From Akkermansia muciniphila (lineage in GTDB: Bacteria; Verrucomicrobiota; Verrucomicrobiia; Verrucomicrobiales; Akkermansiaceae): a stretch of DNA of 64,000 nucleotides. Location: contig CAMAQB010000004.1 of assembly GCA_945860285.1 (NCBI GenBank), positions 12,164 through 76,163 on the forward strand, read 5' to 3'. The notes beneath the pieces were generated by a model. The model ran no database searches and was not told where the DNA came from. It saw only the letters and a program-made list of their open reading frames with translations. This document shows, one piece after another, positions 55,082 to 64,000 of this stretch (position 1 is its first letter; each line of letters opens with the position of its first letter). The position numbers and the translations under genes are program-made.

Positions 55082-55156
55082 GCGCGGTTAGCTCAGTGGT
55101 AGAGCACCACCTCGACACGGTGGGGGTCGCAGGTTCGAGACCTGCACCGCGCACCA
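55082..55156 (+). tRNA. tRNA-Val (anticodon GAC), CCA encoded
   Basis: Manual cloverleaf: GCGCGGT|TA|GCTC|AGTGGTA|GAGC|A|CCACC|TCGACAC|GGTGG|GGGTC|GCAGG|TTCGAGA|CCTGC|ACCGCGC|A|CCA. All stems pair perfectly. The anticodon loop has C rather than U at position 33. Confidence 0.85.
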
Positions 55157-55293: not shown

Positions 55294-55372
55294 GGGGCAT
55301 AATTTCGGATTTTGGTGGGCATTTTGGTGGGCATTTTTTTGTTGTTTTTATATCATTTGCAGTGGGCATTTT
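55294..55372 (+). repeat. Cluster of direct repeats G(G/T)GGGCAT(T/A)
   Basis: GGGGCATAATTT at 55294. Tandem TTTTGGTGGGCA at 55310-55321 and 55322-55333. GTGGGCATTTT at 55362-55372. All same orientation, 140-215 nt after the tRNA. Confidence 0.7.
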
Positions 55373-55383
55373 CAAGACGCTCT

Positions 55384-55401
55384 GACCGTTGCATAACGGT
55401 C
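55384..55401. repeat. Island palindrome, variant copy GACCGTT-GCAT-AACGGTC
   Basis: Half-sites ACCGTT / AACGGT are identical to the three downstream copies. The central 4 nt is GCAT instead of ACGT. Lies 67 nt upstream of the amidase ATG. Confidence 0.8.
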
Positions 55402-55467
55402 GTCACTCAGTCTTCTGCGCGTCCACTATTTTTTATGGTTACTGCCGGTTGACGGCTGGGTAATCGT

Positions 55468-56010
55468 ATGAAGAAACAAATCGCGCTGGTGGTAGGGCAT
55501 GAGCCAGGTGGCGGTGCTGAGGGTGAGCGGGCGTATAATTTAATTGTTCAAAAGAGCCTGAAGGAAATGCTTGAGGCGGAGGGCTTCGATGTGTTCGCGT
55601 ATGTGCATGAGCTTAAATCCTACGGGGCACGGCAAGCGGCAATGGCGGCGGCGGTCAATAAGGCGCAACCGCAAAACTTGATTTGCGTGGAGCTGCATTA
55701 CAATGACGTGGATGCCGAGCCTGCGAATGGGCACCAGTTCCACTACAATGCGTGTAGGGGGCTGGCGGTGGCATTTGCGAGTGAGTGGCAGAAGACATTC
55801 CCCAGCTCGCGTGCGCGGCAGGACAGGGGCACGCTGCACACGCCTACGGGTGATGGTGCAGGGTTTCTAAGAAAGTCTCCAGGGCTGGCTGTGCTGGTGG
55901 AGCCGTTTTTCCACTCGAACAAGATTGAGTGGATGTTTTTTCGTAATAAGCAAAAGGAAGTGGCAGAGGCATACGGACGGGCAATCATTCAATTCACGAA
56001 AAAACTTTGA
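55468..56010 (+). CDS. N-acetylmuramoyl-L-alanine amidase (Amidase_3-like; phage endolysin candidate)
   Basis: ALVVGHEPGGGAEG.E..., ICVELHYND, AVLVEPFFHSN match the Zn-ligand contexts of the MurNAc-LAA family. No signal peptide. Confidence 0.7.
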   Translation: MKKQIALVVGHEPGGGAEGERAYNLIVQKSLKEMLEAEGFDVFAYVHELKSYGARQAAMAAAVNKAQPQNLICVELHYNDVDAEPANGHQFHYNACRGLAVAFASEWQKTFPSSRARQDRGTLHTPTGDGAGFLRKSPGLAVLVEPFFHSNKIEWMFFRNKQKEVAEAYGRAIIQFTKKL

Positions 56011-56225
56011 TGTTTGGGGCGAAAGTAAATTTTGTGGATGGGCTGCGGGGGTGGATGGATCGCTTGCCGATTCGTTTGCGGCGGTCGGAGAAAGAATTGA
56101 GTGTGGCAGCGGGTGAGGTAACTCCGATCGCGGAAACGGAGGGGCAAGAAGCAGTCATCGGGGCGATGGGCTGGGGCGGTGCCAAGTGGAATGGTGAGGT
56201 GGCTAAGGTTTTGAAAGATATATGA
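56010..56225 (+). CDS. Hypothetical phage protein (71 aa)
   Basis: ORF translationally coupled on both sides (TGATG at 56008-56012; ATGA at 56222-56225). No TM segment and no family recognised. Confidence 0.45.
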   Translation: MFGAKVNFVDGLRGWMDRLPIRLRRSEKELSVAAGEVTPIAETEGQEAVIGAMGWGGAKWNGEVAKVLKDI

Positions 56226-56635
56226 GAAACGCATTAGCGGCAGCATGGGCAGATGATTTAGCAGGGCGCGTAGCGATACCGGTCTATGCGCAGCGGCGAG
56301 ACGCGGCGGCGGTGCCACCGTTTGCAGTGGTGCGCGTAGAGGAGCTGGAGCAGGTGGTGGGCGGCGCGGATGTCTGGCACGGGGAAGTGCGAGTGGTGGT
56401 GGTGACAGATATTTACCGCGAGGGCGGGGAGTCTGTAGCAGCGCACCATTCGGCGGTGGCGGATATTTACAGAGCGCTGGAGGAGACGGTGAAGGACAGC
56501 TGCGATATGGACCGAAATGTGCGGTTGTATGGATTCGATTTGCACCGGCACGAGGAAGTGCAGGTAAGCAGCCCACGTGGAGAAAAGGTGTATGCGGATG
56601 TTTTTTTCATCACGGCGGGCGCGGGGCGCGTGTGA
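56222..56635 (+). CDS. Hypothetical phage structural protein (possible tail-completion/terminator-type, by position)
   Basis: 137 aa, immediately upstream of the putative major tail gene. Weak resemblance to DUF3168-type proteins (VYAQRRD...PPFAVVRVEE...). The assignment is positional. Confidence 0.4.
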   Translation: MRNALAAAWADDLAGRVAIPVYAQRRDAAAVPPFAVVRVEELEQVVGGADVWHGEVRVVVVTDIYREGGESVAAHHSAVADIYRALEETVKDSCDMDRNVRLYGFDLHRHEEVQVSSPRGEKVYADVFFITAGAGRV

Positions 56636-56795
56636 TGCCCCTGCCCTCCTAGATCAGAGCGGAGCGTTCACTGTAGCGCGCATGTTTTGCGTTGGCTTAC
56701 GATAGTTACTAGGATTTTCTGGGCTTAGGTACACTTCTACCTAAGGATAGATGCCGCCCCTCTGCCCACCCCTAGGTTGACAGGACAACAAAGGC

Positions 56796-57164
56796 ATGGC
56801 TTTTACAAAACATGGGAACGGCGATTACATTTTTGGTTTTAACGATCCATCGGCGTTGGCGATTGCGGCGGCGGTCGGGGTGAAGCCGCAAACTTTAAGT
56901 CTTAGCTTCACTCCTGAATTCACGGCACAGGCGGAAAACGAGGATGCCGAAGTGGATAGCGTGGTGGTGGGTGCGGATACAGTGGATTTCACTCTGAGCG
57001 GGTATCTGGTGGATCAGGAGCTTTTCGAGGAGGGCGCATCGTTTGAGTTCGCCGGACGTTACTTTATCATCATGAGTCGTAAGTTGGACCTTAACAATAA
57101 GGACTACTGCAAAGCCGAGCTGGCTGGTAAGTCTCATTTGAATGTTACTGGTTTGGCTGATTGA
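56796..57164 (+). CDS. Putative major tail protein (positional assignment)
   Basis: 122-aa acidic, beta-rich ORF occupying the slot two genes upstream of the tape measure gene. Followed by a strong terminator. Confidence 0.4.
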   Translation: MAFTKHGNGDYIFGFNDPSALAIAAAVGVKPQTLSLSFTPEFTAQAENEDAEVDSVVVGADTVDFTLSGYLVDQELFEEGASFEFAGRYFIIMSRKLDLNNKDYCKAELAGKSHLNVTGLAD

Positions 57165-57183
57165 TTTTTTGTTGTAGTGTGGG

Positions 57184-57220
57184 AACGGCGAGAGGGAAAC
57201 TTCTCGCCGTTTTTTCTTTT
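57184..57220 (+). terminator. Rho-independent terminator
   Basis: AACGGCGAGA-gggaaact-TCTCGCCGTT (10-bp stem) followed by TTTTTCTTTT. Lies 20 nt after the stop of the putative major tail gene. Confidence 0.75.
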
Positions 57221-57229
57221 GACGCGTTG

Positions 57230-57245
57230 ACCGTTACGTAACGGT
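57230..57245. repeat. Island palindrome ACCGTTACGTAACGGT (perfect 16 bp)
   Basis: Perfect inverted repeat that ends immediately before ATG 57246. Overlaps the GTTGAC box at 57226-57231. Confidence 0.9.
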
Positions 57246-57914
57246 ATGACGAATAAAGAGCGGTTTTATGAGGCGTTTGCGCACACGGAGCATGTAGTGT
57301 TCGGTCGAAAGCTGAAACGATTCACACTGCGGCACAGGTTTTGGCTGGAGACGCTGGAATGCGGTGCGGTGGTGGGCGGCACAGTGGACTGGCCAGCGGT
57401 GGAGCTGGGGGTGCGAATTTGCTCTATGCCATACGAGGGGCTGGACGATGCGGTGAAGAAGCTGCTCAGGCGTGGGCCGAGATGGTGGGAGGCATGGCGT
57501 TTTTTATGGCGGGCCATGCGCGGCGACTTGGCAAAAGAATACGGCGCTCTGCTGGAATACATGGGCGATCACGGCTGCGCGCCGGAGCGGAATGGTGATG
57601 GCGGTGGGGCGGGCATGACTTACGAGGCTATGCCCGGTCTGCTGAGTCTGGTGTGTGGGGTGGTGCGTGCTAGTGGCGGGTGGTCGCCGGATACGGTATG
57701 GTCATTGAGTCCAGGAGAAGCAGAGTGGTATTGCACGGCGTGTTACATGCACCGAGGGGTGGACATGGGGATTAAGACCGAGCATGATGAGAGATTTGAA
57801 GCGGGGCTGGCGGAGCATGGCGAGGCGATCCGCGCAGTGATCGCGGAGGCAAAGCGGAAGCGCAAAGAAGCGGCGGCAGCAAAGGCGGCCGAGGCTGCGG
57901 AGGCGGCAGATTGA
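57246..57914 (+). CDS. Hypothetical phage protein in tail-assembly-chaperone position
   Basis: 222-aa ORF directly upstream of the tape measure gene, with a C-terminal Ala/Lys/Glu-rich tail. Function is inferred only from gene order. No slippery frameshift site was noticed. Confidence 0.4.
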   Translation: MTNKERFYEAFAHTEHVVFGRKLKRFTLRHRFWLETLECGAVVGGTVDWPAVELGVRICSMPYEGLDDAVKKLLRRGPRWWEAWRFLWRAMRGDLAKEYGALLEYMGDHGCAPERNGDGGGAGMTYEAMPGLLSLVCGVVRASGGWSPDTVWSLSPGEAEWYCTACYMHRGVDMGIKTEHDERFEAGLAEHGEAIRAVIAEAKRKRKEAAAAKAAEAAEAAD

Positions 57915-57921
57915 GGGGTTG

Positions 57922-57937
57922 ACCGTTACGTAACGGT
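57922..57937. repeat. Island palindrome ACCGTTACGTAACGGT (perfect 16 bp)
   Basis: Identical to the copy at 57230. Ends immediately before ATG 57938 and overlaps the GTTGAC box at 57918-57923. Confidence 0.9.
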
Positions 57938-60900
57938 ATGGCGAATCAACAAACGACGACGACCGCTAATGTGGTGGTGCAAAGCTCCGGCATCGGTAAA
58001 TTAAAAAGCCAGTGGGCGGATTTCACGGGATCGTTATTGGAGCCGATCGCAATTTTAGCGTCGGGTGGATCTAAGGTGCAAGCGTTGTGGGCTGGGGTGC
58101 GCTCTATATTTATGGCAAAAGTTCTCGGGCCGCTGGAGCTGGGGGTGGGAGCATCGCTGGCGTTCTTGGTGATGACGAAGCGATTGGTGAGCGCGTGGAA
58201 GGAGCTGGGTATGTCCTCGGCGGCGACGCTGGAGCGGATGACGCTACAGTTCCGGCCATTGCTCGGTAGCATGGAGCGAGCGCGTGATCGGGTGAAGGAG
58301 CTGATGGAGTTCACGGAGCGGACACCCTTCCGATTGGAGGAAACGGCGGAGGCGAATAAAATTTTAGAAGCGCTGACAAAGGGCGCATTGTCAGGGCGCG
58401 AGGGCATGTTGTTAGTCGGTGATGCGGCGGCGGTGGCGGGGGTGGGACTATCCGAGGCGGCACGTTATACGGGACGGCTGTATGACGGGCTGATGAGTGG
58501 CCGGCCAGTGGGTGAAGCTGCCATGCGATTGCAGGAGATGGGTATCATCACGGGGCAAACGCGGAATCAGATTGAGAGCTTGCAGGCGACGAATACGAGC
58601 GGGTTGGCGATTTGGCGAATGGTGCAGGCAGAGATGGCGAAAAATAAGGGCGCGATGGATGATATGAGCGTATCGCTGGAGGGCCTACAATCGACGTTTG
58701 AGGACACGAAGATGAGTCTGCAAGCGGGCTTCAGCGAAAATTTCATGGAGGGGGAAAAGGCGGGTATCAAGAGCAGCATTGCGCTGATGAAGCTGATTCA
58801 GCCAGTGGCGGAAGAAATGGGGAAAGCCTTTGGCGAATTGAGTAATTGGTGGGCGAATTTGAAAAACAAGGCGGTGGAAAGTGCGACGACTATCCAGGGG
58901 CTGGGCACGACGATCACGTGGTTGGTGAAGGGTCTGCTCGGATTTGCTGGTGCGTTAGCTTTAACGGGCGGGGTGGCAATGGCGGGATTTATCGCCAAGA
59001 TTTTATTAGTGGCGGCGGGAAATAAGGCTGCGGCGCAATCGCAGGTAATGCTGAATGCGGTGCAAGGCAGTAGCGTGGGAGTAATGGCAAAGCTGACCTC
59101 GATGAAGAATAGTGCGCTGGCGGCGATCCGTGCGAATGCGGCGGGGCTGAGAGCGGAAGCTGCTGCGCACATGCAGGCAGCGGGAGCAGCGGGGCGAAAC
59201 ATCGTGGCGACGAATGGGGTGACGGCGGCGACGCGGGTGGCATCTCTATCGTTTAAGGGCATGGGCATGGCGCTGCGGTTTGTGGGGGCGCAGTTCAAGT
59301 TGCTGGCAGTTTCGATGCTGACGAATCCCCTGTTTTTGGTTATAGCAGCATTGGTCGCGGTGGGAATAACGCTCAAGCATTTTAGCGATCAAACGGCGGC
59401 GGCGAAAAAGCAGCAGGATGATTATGCGAAAAGCACGGACGCGCTGATGAGTAAGATGACGCGCGAATCGAGGGAGATCCGCACGAAGATCGATCTGCGC
59501 CGTCAGGAGGCCGCGGCGATCGGAGAACTCGGGAAAGCGTATGCGGCACTGGAGGGGGCTGATGATGCCAAGATGAAGTCGCTAGCAAATGAGCGGATTG
59601 ATAAATTACGAAAACAGCTGGAAGGAATTCGCGGAAAAAGCGGCATAGTTGAAAAATCAGAAAACCAATATGGCCGCGATGCGGAAAACCGGGCGGATAG
59701 CGTGGCAGCAGATCGATCGGGTGAAGATATATTTTCAGAGAGAGGGCCGGAGCAAGCGTTGGCGATTGCAGAAAAAAGGCTGGCGGTGATCGAGGAGAGA
59801 AGGCGTGCGGCGATTGAATTAGAACAACTGGAAGCGGCCGCCGAGAAGCGGGCGGATGCGGCGGTGGTGGCCGGTCAGGAGAACTTGCTTCGTGAGCAGC
59901 AGATCATGCGGGAGATGGCGGTGCTGAATGAGGGGTTGGCAAATCATGGCAAAGGATGGGAAACGGCGGGTGAAACTCAGGACCGCCATAAAAAGCAGCG
60001 CGCGAAAAAAGCAGAGTTAGAAGCCGAGCTTGTAGGAATCCGCATGAATCAACAAGGCGGGGGCGCGGAGTTGTCTGCACAGCTCAATAGTGGCAGTGAG
60101 CAAATGGCGCTGAATGCAAAAATCGCGGCGTATGACCAAATGATGGAAGCGGCGAAAGAGGTGGAGGATGCGAATGTCGCTGTCGCTAATGCGGAAAAAG
60201 ATGGTCTGGCCGCTGCGAAAGAGAGCCTGGATATAGCACTTCAACGGGCGGCGGTGGCGAATGGCGTAGCTGGCCAGGCGGGAGTGATAGGCTGGGGCGC
60301 GGGCAATCGCAAAGAAGGTGTGGATAAAGTGAGTGAACTGGAAACCCGGCGGAGCGAGGATATCTCCACCGATCGCAAAATCAAGGCGGCGGCGGAAACA
60401 AAAAAATTAGCGTATGATGTGATGCGCGCACGACTGGATGGTGAGGCGGCGGTGGACAGTATTCGCTTAAGGGGTGATGAGCGCGAAGCGAAATTATTAG
60501 AGATCGAAAGGGAAAAGCTGGAGCTGAAAAAACAAAGTAACCTGATCGGTGCGCAAGCGTATGATCGGGAGAGCGAGAGTCTCAATGCTAAGGCCGAGGC
60601 TCTGAAGAAAGAGTCGAAGGAAAAGCGCGAGATCATGGTGCAGGGAATGGTGCTCGGTAAATTGCAGCGGGCGATGGCAGAGGCGCAGTTGAAGGGTGAC
60701 GCGAAGGGCGCGAAAAATCTGCGTGATGAAATAGCGCGGCGTGAAAAGGCGGCGGAGCAAGCTGCGGCGGAGCGGGACTCAAAGGAGATCGGCGGCAAGG
60801 GAAATCAGGAAGAATATGTAAAGCTGCGGATGGCTGCATTTACGGAGCAGCAAAAAATGGAAGAAGACGCACGGAAGCGTAATGAAAAGGAAAGCCAGAG

Positions 60901-61303
60901 AGCGACGCGTGCTGATGTTCAATCCGGTGTGGTGGGAGTGCAGGCGCGGGTGCTGAAGATGCAAGGCAATCATGATGGCGCGAAAGCGATGCTAAAGGAA
61001 GATCAGGCAAAGCAGGACGAGCTGGCACGGGCTGCGCGCGCAAAGGCTCTTCGCGCCGATGGATTTAGCAAGGGAGAAGCCTCGGCCTTGGCGAGAGATG
61101 AAATGAAGTCAAAGCAGGGGGAGCGGATTCTTAACAAGCTATTCGATCAAAAGGGAACCGTGGTGGCGGGGAGCATGGCACAGATCGGCGGCGGTGGCGG
61201 GGTGTATGGAAATGACCCACAAGCGAGAGCGCTAGAAAAAGCGACGCGGGTGCTGGAGCAGATCCGCGATAATACGGTGAAGACGGTGGAGGATGCTTGG
61301 TGA
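57938..61303 (+). CDS. Phage tail tape measure protein
   Basis: 1121 aa. Hydrophobic segments near residues ~320-480 (GLGTTITWLVKGLLGFAGALALTGGVAMAGFIAKILLVAAG; LTNPLFLVIAALVAVGITL) and very long Ala/Glu/Lys/Arg-rich helical regions. Canonical position in a siphovirus tail module. Confidence 0.8.
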   Translation: MANQQTTTTANVVVQSSGIGKLKSQWADFTGSLLEPIAILASGGSKVQALWAGVRSIFMAKVLGPLELGVGASLAFLVMTKRLVSAWKELGMSSAATLERMTLQFRPLLGSMERARDRVKELMEFTERTPFRLEETAEANKILEALTKGALSGREGMLLVGDAAAVAGVGLSEAARYTGRLYDGLMSGRPVGEAAMRLQEMGIITGQTRNQIESLQATNTSGLAIWRMVQAEMAKNKGAMDDMSVSLEGLQSTFEDTKMSLQAGFSENFMEGEKAGIKSSIALMKLIQPVAEEMGKAFGELSNWWANLKNKAVESATTIQGLGTTITWLVKGLLGFAGALALTGGVAMAGFIAKILLVAAGNKAAAQSQVMLNAVQGSSVGVMAKLTSMKNSALAAIRANAAGLRAEAAAHMQAAGAAGRNIVATNGVTAATRVASLSFKGMGMALRFVGAQFKLLAVSMLTNPLFLVIAALVAVGITLKHFSDQTAAAKKQQDDYAKSTDALMSKMTRESREIRTKIDLRRQEAAAIGELGKAYAALEGADDAKMKSLANERIDKLRKQLEGIRGKSGIVEKSENQYGRDAENRADSVAADRSGEDIFSERGPEQALAIAEKRLAVIEERRRAAIELEQLEAAAEKRADAAVVAGQENLLREQQIMREMAVLNEGLANHGKGWETAGETQDRHKKQRAKKAELEAELVGIRMNQQGGGAELSAQLNSGSEQMALNAKIAAYDQMMEAAKEVEDANVAVANAEKDGLAAAKESLDIALQRAAVANGVAGQAGVIGWGAGNRKEGVDKVSELETRRSEDISTDRKIKAAAETKKLAYDVMRARLDGEAAVDSIRLRGDEREAKLLEIEREKLELKKQSNLIGAQAYDRESESLNAKAEALKKESKEKREIMVQGMVLGKLQRAMAEAQLKGDAKGAKNLRDEIARREKAAEQAAAERDSKEIGGKGNQEEYVKLRMAAFTEQQKMEEDARKRNEKESQRATRADVQSGVVGVQARVLKMQGNHDGAKAMLKEDQAKQDELARAARAKALRADGFSKGEASALARDEMKSKQGERILNKLFDQKGTVVAGSMAQIGGGGGVYGNDPQARALEKATRVLEQIRDNTVKTVEDAW

Positions 61304-61477
61304 GCAGACGCTGTGTCTCGTCTTGGTCGGCGCGAAGGCCGGATTCGCTGCCTAACGATGAGCGCATGCACCACTACCAGCAGCGGCGGGCATCGATCAC
61401 GGGGTTATTATTGTAATTACGGAAAATCATCGAAACAGGGCGACTGGTAGTGGTTGTCATGACGCGGCTTGTTGGGC

Positions 61478-62311
61478 TTATTTATTCTGCTGGAAGATGG
61501 AGTGGAAATCCTTCAGTAACTCAGCCTTAAGGACAATACCCAGATTGTTGGGAATTCCTGCGATACTCACAGCCTTCTGGTGGACGGGAATTGTCACCAC
61601 TCGGACATCACCCTCAACTGTGTGTTGCGGCCCAGCGTAAAGAACGCCTAGCAACTTGATACGCGATCCCATGACAATTTCATTGCGTCTTAAATATGAC
61701 CCTGCATCAAAGACGAGAACTGGCGATCCACTCGATCCCGGAAAACAAGCAGCATCAATCAAAAACTCCTTCTTGCCGTTCCAGTCTTTGTCGTAGGCGG
61801 AGGCCAAAACACCACGGCGAAAGATTGGTAAGTTGTTCGTGCTATCCCACAGGCCATTCGGATAGCCCACCATGGTAATCGACTCAATCCCCACAAAATC
61901 CTCAACATCTGCTGGAGTCGGCAGGAGTGAATCATCAAACCCAATGTAGAAAAACTTCACGCCTCGGCTCTCAGCATGATGGAGAAGTGGGGCGATCGGC
62001 ATGATCGCTAAGTCAATATTGGGGTCAGGATGTCTGATCCACCTCGAATCAAACGAGTCAAATTCGAACGTCTCATGCCTTCCATAATCCGGCATGCCTT
62101 CTGAATCCTGAAGCGTCATCAAAAATCGCCCCTTGGAAGCGCCATCGATAACATGTCGATTTGTGACTATGGCCGGCACATGTTGACCTCCATCGATTGC
62201 GAAGCTGTAAAAGAATCCAGAACCCGTGCCACGTCCTCCGTCGGGATAGTCAGTCTCAATCCGCACTGTGCTGTGGGAGAGTTCTTCAATAGGCGTAAGT
62301 TTGCGTTTCAT
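61478..62311 (-). CDS. Trypsin-like (S1/chymotrypsin-fold) serine protease, cytoplasmic; moron-like insert
   Basis: Triad contexts IVTNRHVIDG (His), NIDLAIMPI (Asp), CFPGSSGSPVLVF (Ser). No signal peptide. Opposite strand to all other island genes and visibly lower GC. The track start 62356 is TTG; the ATG is at 62311 (MKRKLTPIEE...). Confidence 0.75.
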   Translation of the reverse strand: MKRKLTPIEELSHSTVRIETDYPDGGRGTGSGFFYSFAIDGGQHVPAIVTNRHVIDGASKGRFLMTLQDSEGMPDYGRHETFEFDSFDSRWIRHPDPNIDLAIMPIAPLLHHAESRGVKFFYIGFDDSLLPTPADVEDFVGIESITMVGYPNGLWDSTNNLPIFRRGVLASAYDKDWNGKKEFLIDAACFPGSSGSPVLVFDAGSYLRRNEIVMGSRIKLLGVLYAGPQHTVEGDVRVVTIPVHQKAVSIAGIPNNLGIVLKAELLKDFHSIFQQNK

Positions 62312-62474
62312 ATATTTTACCCAACAGTATAATTCGTTCAGAAGAAGATTAATCAAATTTAACGATTTAAAAAAGAATTCTTATGATAATTTTGCAAACC
62401 CTTTATTCATAAGGGGAAAACTTCTGTAGTCACAGATGTTTGAATACTTAGACAACAGAACAATCGTGGCTAAG

Positions 62475-62495
62475 CATCTGTGATTTCCACAGATG
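62475..62495. promoter_or_regulatory. Operator-like inverted repeat CATCTGTG-N5-CACAGATG
   Basis: Perfect 8-bp arms in the divergent region between the protease gene and the gene starting at 62566. A third half-site CACAGATG is at 62431-62438. Confidence 0.4.
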
Positions 62496-62565
62496 CCGCA
62501 ATGAACCGCCTCGCCTCACCCGCCTCGCCTCAGTGGTCTGCCGCAGTTGACTGGGAGCGTAGAGC

Positions 62566-63285
62566 ATGTTGGCTCATGGGAGTAATGGTCTAGTGCTGGA
62601 GCATAGCGGCAAGCTGAAAAGTGACCGTTATGGATTGTGGACGGGACGCTTGCGTTTTAGTATGCCGGCGACTCGCCCAGAATTGCTGCCTGCGGTGGGA
62701 AGTGTGCACCCTGGGGTGAGTTGGATGCATTGCGAGGATCGTGATATCACGCTGACTCCTGGGCGGTGGCTGGTGGATTGCAGCTATGTGGGCACGGATG
62801 CGATCGATACGACGGCGGTGTATGAGCTGCAGCGGAATACGAATACGGAGCCGATCGAGACTCATGAAAAATTCGTAACGCATATTGCAGGGAAGCCGAG
62901 CGCCCCGCTGAACGGAGCATTGTTTGTGGATGAAGATGGCACCCCGACGGCGGATGATAAGCGAGGATTGTTTCACCGTTTCATCGCGGTAAAGCCTGAT
63001 GGAAGTCGGAATCGATTTGCGGGAATGACGGGGTTTTTATCGCCAAGCAGCACGCAGTGGGTGAAGTCGTGGACGAGCCGAACGAAGCCGACCGATGGGG
63101 GTGGTGTAGGGAAAATCGATACGCCGGAGGGAGGGGCTACGAGCTTCGCGGGCTGCGACTGGCTTTATGTGGGAATGCAATTTTCTGAGCGAGTGGGCGT
63201 CTATAGCATACGGAAGTCGTGGATGCTGAGTGGCCGCGGCGGCTGGATTCCAGAAGTCTATGAGCCTGACGGAGCCACTTCTTAG
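62566..63285 (+). CDS. Hypothetical phage tail protein (distal-tail position)
   Basis: 239-aa ORF, the first same-strand gene after the tape measure gene. A GTTGAC box 19 nt upstream supports ATG 62566. No family recognised. Confidence 0.5.
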   Translation: MLAHGSNGLVLEHSGKLKSDRYGLWTGRLRFSMPATRPELLPAVGSVHPGVSWMHCEDRDITLTPGRWLVDCSYVGTDAIDTTAVYELQRNTNTEPIETHEKFVTHIAGKPSAPLNGALFVDEDGTPTADDKRGLFHRFIAVKPDGSRNRFAGMTGFLSPSSTQWVKSWTSRTKPTDGGGVGKIDTPEGGATSFAGCDWLYVGMQFSERVGVYSIRKSWMLSGRGGWIPEVYEPDGATS

Positions 63286-63291
63286 CGGTTG

Positions 63292-63307
63292 ACCGTTACG
63301 TAATGGT
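63292..63307. repeat. Island palindrome, one-mismatch copy ACCGTTACGTAATGGT
   Basis: 15 of 16 positions identical to the copies at 57230 and 57922. Ends 1 nt before ATG 63309. GTTGAC box at 63288-63293. Confidence 0.85.
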
Positions 63308-63308
63308 G

Positions 63309-64000
63309 ATGAGTGATTTTTTATCCAAGTTAACTCCGGTGAAACGAGGGATGAGCCCGGCGCAGCTGGCGAGTCCGGAGCGCATCGAGGCGCTGCAACA
63401 GGCAATCGTGGCACTGTGGGAGGGGCGGAACCTGACGACTCGAGGCGTGCCTGTGAGCAGCGGTGCTAGTAGTCGCCATGGGCGGCGGTTCGTGCCGCTG
63501 TTCGCGCATGGGAAGTTACGGATCGGCCTGGGGACGGTGGCCTTAAAGCAATCACTAACGCCACTGATTGAGCCGCATTACCCGCTATTCAACGAGGTGA
63601 AGATTGATGCGGATGAGGCCCCAGCGATGGATTTGGCGGATATGGCAGCAGGCGATTATCAGATTGTTTTGCTTTGCAGTAGTAATAGCCGGATTGTAGT
63701 GCAGCTAGTCAGCGAGGAGATTGTAAAAGAGGAGGATGAGCAAGCCGTGCAACTGGCGACGTTCACAATGGGAGCGGGCGCGGTGGGTGTGGTGGAGGAT
63801 GTGCAGCACTTATGGCGGAGTGATGTATTTATTTCCAGGGGGGCGTGCCCATTTGGTGATGTGTTCGTGTTGTTGGAAGGTGAGATCGCGACTACTTATC
63901 TCTCGGGGGGAGTGTTGACGGGTGGCGAAACCAATGATGTGATCGCCGATATTGAGATAGACCTAGGAAGTCCAAATGGCACTTGGCTTTGGATGTTGGT
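63309..64000 (+). CDS. Hypothetical phage protein, N-terminal 230 aa (continues beyond window)
   Basis: Own translation MSDFLSKLTPVKRGMSPAQLASPERIEALQQAIVALWEGRNL... is open to the window end, so it is absent from the track. An in-frame ATG at 63303 is an alternative start. Confidence 0.6.
   Translation, partial: MSDFLSKLTPVKRGMSPAQLASPERIEALQQAIVALWEGRNLTTRGVPVSSGASSRHGRRFVPLFAHGKLRIGLGTVALKQSLTPLIEPHYPLFNEVKIDADEAPAMDLADMAAGDYQIVLLCSSNSRIVVQLVSEEIVKEEDEQAVQLATFTMGAGAVGVVEDVQHLWRSDVFISRGACPFGDVFVLLEGEIATTYLSGGVLTGGETNDVIADIEIDLGSPNGTWLWML

Follow-up and report, generated by a model that had tools for sequence, protein, structure and literature searches.

Genes in the prophage part of a 64,000-nucleotide (nt) stretch of Akkermansia muciniphila DNA (contig CAMAQB010000004.1; the whole stretch is called the window below) are preceded, at a nearly fixed distance from the start codon, by a short sequence, GTTGAC, referred to here as the box. 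The box is a real, strongly selected, lineage-wide late-gene start signal: about 180 related viral loci, when pooled, contain 487 unique boxes ahead of open reading frames (ORFs) from 86 unrelated protein families. It is tentatively read as a compact late promoter whose messenger RNAs (mRNAs) start at the start codon, that is, are leaderless, with a palindrome acting as an operator in the window's clade. The boxes of the window lie in its final 9 kb, the left arm of a prophage that follows a tRNA-Val gene.

All six boxes that a preliminary description of the window had listed were found where it placed them (Table 1). With the distance taken between the first T of TTGAC and the A of the ATG, the offset is 19 nt at five of them (55448, 56776, 57226, 57918, and 62546) and 20 nt at the sixth (63288). 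The count against shuffled controls that was then suggested gave, for the window, six occurrences of GTTGAC-N14-ATG where 0.57 ± 0.76 were expected, and none of 100 dinucleotide shuffles reached six (maximum 3). These six matches comprise five of the reported boxes and a further box-like site at 63914, which is probably non-functional, either a chance occurrence or a decayed copy, and all lie on the plus strand of the prophage. The plus strand of the island has eight GTTGAC sequences, seven with an ATG at +19 or +20, and the eighth (62182) lies within a reverse-strand gene. The host part (55 kb) contains 28 GTTGAC sequences on both strands, none with an ATG at +19, which agrees with the assignment of the box to the phage and not to the host. 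The genes at 56010 and 56222, which overlap the preceding stop codon, lack the box, as had been reported. An estimate of about 1/1024 per site, offered at the time to exclude coincidence, presumed independent sites and is not supported, since a single unit of 23-24 nt, GTTGACCGTTACGTAACGGT(G)ATG (class A), recurs at 57226, 57918, and 63288, so that the six sites are not independent events within the window. Independence is supplied by the relatives.

Conservation in related elements, the absence of which was to count against the signal, proved to be massive. The exact 19-mer of the class-A repeat occurs in three IMG/VR viral contigs, with up to seven copies in one, and in a metagenome-assembled genome of Akkermansiaceae from Lake Loclat, which identifies the family of the host. 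In close relatives, boxes at offsets 19 or 20 head the portal gene, a 371-amino acid (aa) head gene, a tape-measure-like gene, a 560-aa gene resembling a large terminase in size and position only, and others. The orthologue of box 2 in the related locus L007 (5037) keeps TTGAC, the spacing and the final AAAGGC while the rest of its spacer differs, and the orthologue of box 5 in the same locus (9573) is a class-A palindrome box in place of TGGGAGCGTAGAGC, showing that the spacer sequence is exchangeable and its length fixed. In distant relatives (60% G+C), whose 239-aa protein is only 26-29% identical, TTGACAC...(G)C-ATG/GTG stands 19 or 20 nt ahead of 7-10 long ORFs in each, and in 79 further viral loci fetched through their S49 prohead protease, 1-10 sense-strand box sites were present in each. 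Across all unique sites the offset was 17 nt at 8, 18 nt at 4, 19 nt at 180, 20 nt at 63, 21 nt at 16, 22 nt at 39, and 23 nt at 31, against a background of about 5-10 per offset; part of the 22- and 23-nt counts may represent second in-frame start codons of 19- or 20-nt sites. Anchored on a single gene, TTGAC stands at -19 or -20 in 56/56 protease orthologues (44-100% identity) whose spacers differ widely, and it is unchanged across phages with only 26-58% protein identity, which suggests a very conserved reader. No cultured relative above 37% identity was found among GenBank phages, and no description of the box was found in the searchable literature.

The consensus of the element reads (C)G-TTGACA-C, 10-11 free bases, and G-C-|A/G-TG. 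The A after TTGAC is present at 69-89% of sites and is followed by C. The G in front, which the preliminary description considered constant, is invariant in the window and occurs at only 64% of sites in relatives. The spacer tends to be C-rich from -13 to -7 and G-rich from -5 to -2, the junction carries G at -2 (82%) and C at -1 (82%) before A or G and TG, and the start codon is ATG or GTG at 242 of 243 sites. Upstream of -22 the position matrix contains no conservation, and in L016, L017, and L018 an identical box and spacer at orthologous positions lie beside unrelated upstream DNA, so that the element is self-contained and about 22 bp long. In the matrix no -10-like signal was detected at +5 to +10 or in the stretch from box to start, and no TANNNT signal of the type found in leaderless promoters at -13 to -6. 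GGAG, GAGG, or AGGA occurs in only 13% of offset-19 spacers, and TTGAC has no complementarity to CCUCC. The earlier statement that no consistent -10 or Shine-Dalgarno sequence separates box and start is thus upheld, as is the view that a sigma-70 -35 box paired with a normal -10 could not stand in this position: relative to the start codon TTGAC occupies -19 to -15, and +5 to +10 is C-rich, the window boxes giving AGAAAC, CTTTTA, CGAATA, and similar hexamers there. A scan for canonical promoters returned 6 hits against 5.3 expected, none of them at boxes.

Nor is a structured RNA apparent. There was no Rfam hit besides tRNA and no fixed-register covariation; stems of at least 5 pairs can form in 38/209 spacers (~18%), where G-U mismatches number 3 and A-C mismatches 9. 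The lack of covariation and of any preference for G-U over A-C argues against a selected RNA structure. The class B and class C boxes of the window have neither fold nor dyad. The hairpin or dyad potential of the spacers is slightly above that of column-shuffled controls (-4.07 vs -3.34 kcal/mol), a small excess that is consistent with operators at a subset of sites, and some spacers, if transcribed, would hide the AUG in a hairpin. An RNA hairpin as the common feature was rejected on these grounds.

Boxes are found ahead of small-terminase-like genes (the first late gene), genes for CHAP or amidase lysins, portal and portal-proximal small genes, and protease and scaffold genes, and also ahead of head-completion, tail, tape-measure-like, fibre, holin-like, and lipoprotein-like genes and one ParB_N-like gene. 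The ~10-kb early region of a 40.7-kb relative (L101) has no box, and genes there use Shine-Dalgarno-like or other upstream sequences. Overlapping genes are mostly boxless. The claim that every gap-preceded gene has a box holds for the plus-strand genes of the window and fails in relatives, where some late genes lack it and carry host-like unstructured leaders or Shine-Dalgarno-like sites; the major capsid genes, with long G-poor host-like leaders and no box, are among them.

In the mechanism proposed, TTGAC(A) would be the upstream recognition element of a promoter of ~22 bp specific to the late class, structural and lysis genes, in a large family of temperate tailed phages that infect Verrucomicrobia. 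Steered by a specificity factor that would be either phage-encoded or a remodelled host sigma, the host RNA polymerase would initiate 19-20 bp 3' of the first T, at the A or G of the start codon, yielding mRNAs that are leaderless or have a leader of 1-4 nt, and mRNAs of boxed genes would be translated without a ribosome-binding site. In the window's clade (clade A), ACCGTTACGTAACGGT between box and start would be an operator for a dimeric phage regulator, which would shut the class-A box promoters together with early promoters bearing the same palindrome. Three parts of this scheme are inferred: the ruler as a transcription start, the nature of what reads the box, and the palindrome's function as an operator. 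Of the options listed in the preliminary description, the one favoured here is an island-specific promoter giving very short leaders.

The argument for this mechanism starts from the register. A DNA-level reader can be locked to the start codon only if transcription starts at or beside that codon, an RNA-level reader would act through the ribosome or a processing factor, and these are the only two families of explanation. The hard lower bound at 19 nt, with 1-4 extra bases tolerated, is as predicted by a fixed transcription start at or upstream of the start codon. The junction C|A-T or C|G-T is the classical context of a transcription start point, and its pyrimidine (-1)/purine (+1) motif 'CAT' favours a DNA-level reading. 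The pyrimidine/purine start rule has been reconfirmed for Akkermansia, and 10% of mapped transcription starts in A. muciniphila are leaderless (PMC4782308); the host family is poor in Shine-Dalgarno sequences (PMC10783764). Host gene starts in the window (1-55000) fit this scarcity, having G-poor, C/A/T-rich upstream sequences and no Shine-Dalgarno.

Individual loci point the same way. A terminator-like hairpin with a T run lies just 5' of 10/28 clade-A boxes, against 8% of control positions. In L008 a class-A box at 786 has no adjacent start and stands 52 nt from its start codon; downstream of it come a host-like, A-rich leader of 33 nt, a gene for 57 aa, then a strong terminator, and the next box. 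In a 70-bp divergent region of L031 the box is the sole promoter-like feature for the leftward gene, and the opposite side has a canonical TTGACA-N19-TAGGAT-N7-ATG leaderless promoter. Canonical TTGACA-N17-19-TAnnnT-N6-7-ATG/GTG arrangements are found elsewhere in these phages and, with the leaderless starts mapped in A. muciniphila, indicate that leaderless expression is in use here; phages and host also use TTGACA/TTGACC as a true -35, 16-19 bp 5' of TAnnnT. Taken together, the G+C-rich spacers, which are unlike host leaders, the restriction to the late class, the L008 box, the clade-A terminators, and L031 favour the DNA-level, leaderless reading. tRNA genes, considered as a test for promoters, had no informative box upstream, neither the 21-tRNA array nor single tRNAs, and contig ends, taken as a stand-in for transcript ends, gave nothing above chance. 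The 21-tRNA array itself is an insertion in two relatives (L024 10981-14114, L025 9653-12786), where it interrupts the structural gene module midway and is encoded on the other strand.

Several observations weigh against a leaderless promoter. As a canonical -35, TTGACA is ruled out by its position, -19 to -14, since transcription would then begin near +17; no -10-like element is present; and in G+C-rich relatives the region from -13 to -1, C-rich and then G-rich, is unfavourable for melting. No ORF of an RNA polymerase family was found in ~38.6 kb of the 40.7-kb relative, whose early region has no ORF above 351 aa. A T7-type polymerase was not recognized among its ORFs of 473-827 aa, which are terminase, portal, protease, recombinase, tape-measure-like, and fibre genes, with those of 578 and 473 aa unassigned. 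Neither an RNA polymerase nor a clear sigma factor was identified among ~70 phage proteins (Pfam, PHROGs). For sigma, the sole candidate is an early protein of 196 aa whose helix-turn-helix weakly resembles the Sigma70_r4_2 type (E = 0.005); clade-A loci did not yield it, and its recognition helix varies, whereas the box does not. Boxes furthermore lie between tightly packed genes, including 52 read-through ATGA/GTGA junctions, and a ribosome-binding site would classically show just such a distribution, with every uncoupled gene having its own box. Terminators are not enriched upstream of boxes in the G+C-rich clade. For host RNA polymerase to start 19 bp 3' of a lone -35-type hexamer without a -10 would require a phage factor or a remodelled sigma with a geometry unlike that of any described holoenzyme, and the chance of such a new promoter architecture, taken by itself, is considered substantial though well below even. 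The 196-aa family (L101 15850-16437, alignment A1) is conserved and combines a novel N-terminal domain with a helix-turn-helix at the C terminus (...KQTAAxFxxxxNTLKARxRREGW); tblastn detected it in 33 of the fetched viral loci, and solved structures gave no match.

These objections lead to the strongest alternative, a start-associated signal at the RNA level, in which UUGAC(A) would be bound by the ribosome or an RNA-binding factor so that the start codon 19 nt on is placed in the P site, the box replacing Shine-Dalgarno pairing for internal genes of polycistronic late mRNAs. The box does occupy the location of a ribosome-binding site, often filling the entire 23-nt intergenic gap, and its distribution in the window, on all gap-preceded plus-strand genes and missing from stop/start-coupled ones, is what such a signal would give. 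In the G+C-rich clade (L016-L100) the TGA of TTGAC is the stop codon of the upstream ORF at 97/279 sites, and at 52 further sites the upstream ORF passes through the box to end in an ATGA or GTGA overlap, so that the box is certainly transcribed within upstream messages. A hard minimum spacing could equally be steric, and a precedent exists in the start-associated sequences of Cluster K mycobacteriophages (PMC3203893). Set against this, the motif has no apparent complementarity to the 3' end of Akkermansia 16S rRNA and is missing before host genes. Spacers of single-stranded RNA usually tolerate variation by several nt, and here the offset is 19-20 nt with a sharp edge; G-C before the start codon is a transcription start context and not a known translational one. 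The box is confined to late genes, the class-A box of L008 is separated from its start codon by a host-type leader, and the major capsid gene, which encodes the most abundant protein, uses a host-like leader instead of the box. The invariance of TTGAC suggests a very conserved reader, and to our knowledge no RNA-binding reader of such kind has been described. An RNA-level signal is on balance unlikely, though it has to be taken seriously. A related idea, termination-reinitiation, was rejected: the in-box TGA is the upstream stop at 0 clade-A sites, and boxes also occur after long non-coding gaps. Use of the in-box stop codon is read as a by-product of genome compaction. At offset 19 the TGA of TTGAC is in frame with the downstream gene.

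The class-A unit holds a perfect 16-bp palindrome, ACCGTTACGTAACGGT, at -16 to -1, that the preliminary description had missed. It occurs at least 15 times in clade-A genomes, and pairs of it without TTGAC are found between the -35-like and -10-like hexamers of two early genes, where it is extended to a 24-bp perfect dyad, TTTCACCGTTACGTAACGGTGAAA. Placement of paired palindromes between such hexamers is typical of a DNA operator, and the palindrome, unlike the box as a whole, behaves as a repressor-operator would: it is a repeated dyad that is also present between the -35 and -10 of other promoters. It is accordingly predicted, from its sequence and location, to be an operator overlapping the box, -16 to -1 being an ideal position for blocking initiation. 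A variant with the class-A arms and another centre, 48 nt 5' of box 1, is likely to be an operator copy. In L005, three tandem ~62-bp iteron-like repeats (2595-2880) adjoin a promoter TTGACA-N18-TACAAT whose spacer is a 26-bp palindrome, AATTGTATGTAAAATTACATACAATT; this is likely the origin/immunity region of a close relative.

The possibility that the boxes serve purely for repression or silencing, like 'stoperators' or conserved inverted repeats, blocking the late region in the lysogen with no part in starting transcription or translation, draws on the frequency of this palindrome in clade A, its tandem pairs at early genes, the 24-bp dyad, and the slight excess of dyad potential in the spacers. 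L5 stoperators (GGTGGMTGTCAAG) contain the complement of TTGACA and lie in short intergenic gaps in one orientation. A pure operator, however, needs no single-base precision from start codons, only ~18% of spacers can form a stem of 5 or more pairs, and the class B and C boxes of the window have no dyad. TTGAC is invariant while the dyad differs between clades, so that the two are separable elements, and repression would explain the palindrome but not the box; as a full account it is improbable.

An ordinary sigma-70 promoter buried in the gene start is very improbable. In this arrangement TTGACA would be the -35, the TG of the start codon part of an extended -10 'T-R-T-G', and the -10 would fall in codons 2-4, with transcription from near +17 serving downstream genes. 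The geometry is exact, TTGACA-N14-TG-N-hexamer giving a 17-bp spacer, and clade-A boxes read T-A-T-G and are followed by A/T-rich first codons. There is nevertheless no TAnnnT at +5 to +10, where C accounts for 62% at +5, 53% at +6, and 47% at +10 (180 sites). The RTG heads long ORFs in 86 unrelated families whose protein homology reaches residues 1-5, and these conserved N-termini identify RTG as the start codon, which a transcript beginning at +17 would remove; a promoter also has no reason to be locked in register with the start codon. The extended -10 reading TTGACA-N14-TG was dropped because no -10 signal follows and N-termini are conserved. By-eye comparison with the position matrix gave no fit to sigma-54 (-24/-12), extracytoplasmic-function sigma, sigma-32, MerR-type, or Bacteroidetes -33/-7 promoters. 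Least probable of all is a recombination joint or mobile 'start cassette', a 23-29 nt unit spread between modules and conserved as a by-product, for although mosaic breakpoints coincide with the 5' edge of the box in L016, L017, and L018 and several class-A copies are identical into the first three codons (ATGGCGAAT), most sites share TTGAC and spacing alone with unrelated spacers, and the retention of TTGAC in all protease orthologues while flanks diverge indicates purifying selection on 5-7 bases and not copy spread.

Among known systems, leaderless promoters are the nearest relatives of the mechanism favoured here. In the Thermus phage phiYS40 the middle and late genes, a whole temporal class, are reportedly leaderless. 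Leaderless promoters such as lambda PRM/cI and the '-10 next to the ORF' type of Deinococcus-Thermus and actinobacteria (PMC12340547, PMC4633059) likewise have an element fixed to the start codon, lack a ribosome-binding site, and require ATG or GTG. The known ones have a -10 hexamer TANNNT at about -12 to -7, whereas the box has no consensus there and only the -35-like block. The sigma-70 -35 TTGACA is the same sequence as the box; the box lies 16 bp too near the start point, has no -10 partner, and with TTGAC 100% conserved is far above natural -35 boxes in conservation. T7-type promoters span -17 to +6, and T4 late promoters have TATAAATA at -13 to -6. Both resemble the box in being self-contained units of at most ~20 bp that fit tiny gaps or the ends of upstream genes, in occurring in many copies per gene class, and in giving a precise start point; they differ in that here no phage RNA polymerase or gp55-like sigma was found and -13 to -3 is sequence-free. 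L5 stoperators and the conserved inverted repeats of phiC31 are many copies of repressor sites in short prophage intergenic gaps. Their behaviour is resembled by that of the palindrome (stoperators are mentioned in PMC3203893), but they have no fixed distance from start codons, and here the palindrome is an optional insert in a more general box.

The likening of the box to start-associated sequences of mycobacteriophages, made when it was first noticed, is apt as an analogy. The start-associated sequences of Cluster K phages (SAS and ESAS) are, like the box, short, asymmetric, phage-specific motifs in one orientation just 5' of many starts, mostly ATG; the host does not have them, they are confined to a single portion of the phage genome, and different subclusters retain them before unrelated genes, and a subset of sites has inverted repeats thought to bind a DNA-binding protein, function being unproven in both systems (PMC3203893). 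SAS are, however, 13 bp long, lie 3-8 bp from the start with variable spacing, have an AGGAG core, and precede non-structural genes (PMC3203893), whereas the box is a -35-like TTGAC(A) at a fixed 14-15 nt from the start, without a Shine-Dalgarno sequence, at late genes of a Shine-Dalgarno-poor host. When compared with the SAS consensus GGGATAGGAGCCC, the box differs in sequence, distance, and gene class, and so is an analogue and not a member.

The box is among the cleanest gene-start signals that can be found, yet it fits neither textbook model. If it is a promoter, it would represent a new minimal architecture (-35-like at -19, no -10), phages would have a novel means of redirecting the polymerase of the host, and whole late regulons would be leaderless outside Thermus and actinobacteria; were that architecture real, a widespread family of Verrucomicrobia phages would have a late regulon free of ribosome-binding sites. 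If it acts in RNA, it would be a non-Shine-Dalgarno signal for ribosome placement in Verrucomicrobia. Either way it can be used at once as a rule by which starts and late genes of uncultured Verrucomicrobia phages are called, and it has corrected one start in the window: the public gene call for the 312-aa gene uses the ATG at 63303, inside the palindrome, and the start at 63309 is favoured because the L007 orthologue begins with GTG at offset 19 and by the box rule. The box could also serve as a compact portable expression element for Akkermansia-type hosts.

Table 1. Boxes and neighbouring features of the window (positions from the first letter of the window; offset measured as in the text)
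Feature	Position	Strand	Description
Box 1	55448-55470	+	GTTGAC-GGCTGGGTAATCGT-ATG, offset 19; heads Amidase_3 endolysin gene
Box 2	56776-56798	+	GTTGAC-AGGACAACAAAGGC-ATG, offset 19; heads 122-aa gene 56796-57164
Box 3 (class A)	57226-57248	+	GTTGACCGTTACGTAACGGT-ATG, offset 19; perfect palindrome 57230-57245; heads 222-aa gene 57246-57914
Box 4 (class A)	57918-57940	+	Same as box 3; palindrome 57922-57937; occupies the whole 23-nt gap before 57938-61303
Box 5	62546-62568	+	GTTGAC-TGGGAGCGTAGAGC-ATG, offset 19; heads 239-aa gene 62566-63285
Box 6 (class A variant)	63288-63311	+	GTTGACCGTTACGTAATGGTG-ATG, offset 20 (N15); palindrome 63292-63307 with one C>T; heads 312-aa gene
Box-like site	63914-63936	+	Inside the 63309 ORF, other frame; heads 2-codon ORF
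tRNA-Val(GAC)	55082-55156	+	ARAGORN and Rfam tRNA match; composition and G>C skew shift beyond it
Palindrome variant	55385-55400		ACCGTTGCATAACGGT; class-A arms, other centre; 48 nt 5' of box 1 (fuzzy palindrome search)
Strong intrinsic terminator	57181-57224	+	15-pair stem, then T run; ends directly 5' of box 3 (terminator scan)
Trypsin_2/phrog_7688 gene	61478-62311	-	No box; own AT-rich upstream region; breaks up the plus-strand late genes

The tRNA-Val(GAC) gene marks the left boundary of the prophage and is likely its integration site. The coding-strand G>C skew of the prophage (56000-64000) is 0.20-0.33, that of the host part about 0 ± 0.1. On the plus strand the prophage encodes an Amidase_3 endolysin (55468-56010; Pfam and PHROG annotation), two small stop/start-coupled genes and the 122-aa gene, which are followed by the strong terminator and then by the 222-aa, 1121-aa, reverse trypsin-like, 239-aa, and 312-aa genes. 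The 1121-aa gene (57938-61303) has no Pfam or PHROG hit, and its product is tape-measure-like by size and position alone; an Rfam scan of the island matched tRNA only. A search for a longer version of this prophage returned only a 7-kb Logan contig, and a metagenome scan gave four tiny contigs.

Further repeats occur in the window's prophage and its relatives. Between tRNA-Val and box 1, three exact copies of GTGGGCATTTT lie at 55309-55372, two of them as a 12-nt tandem, ATTTTGGTGGGC; from their position at the prophage end these may be arm-type recombinase sites or regulator sites. Inverted repeats of the CACAGATG type (62430-62441 with 62472-62483, and 62474-62482 with 62488-62496) and a tandem of two CCGCCTCGCCTCA (62506-62532) sit within the AT-rich gap that separates the reverse trypsin-like gene from box 5; they resemble an independent control region serving the inserted trypsin-like gene. 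The 24-nt amidase box, GGTTGACGGCTGGGTAATCGTATG, has an exact second copy on the minus strand of L002 (2863-2888), downstream of tail genes, where the ORF that it heads has only 4 codons. For L031 (187-1708 and 4723-7027), the features noted are a TET-associated glycosyltransferase (TAGT) that relatives encode beside a ParB_N-like protein, which may indicate DNA hypermodification, and, in one relative, an ISL3 transposase together with a hydrolase-like gene as an insertion separating the large terminase gene from the portal region.

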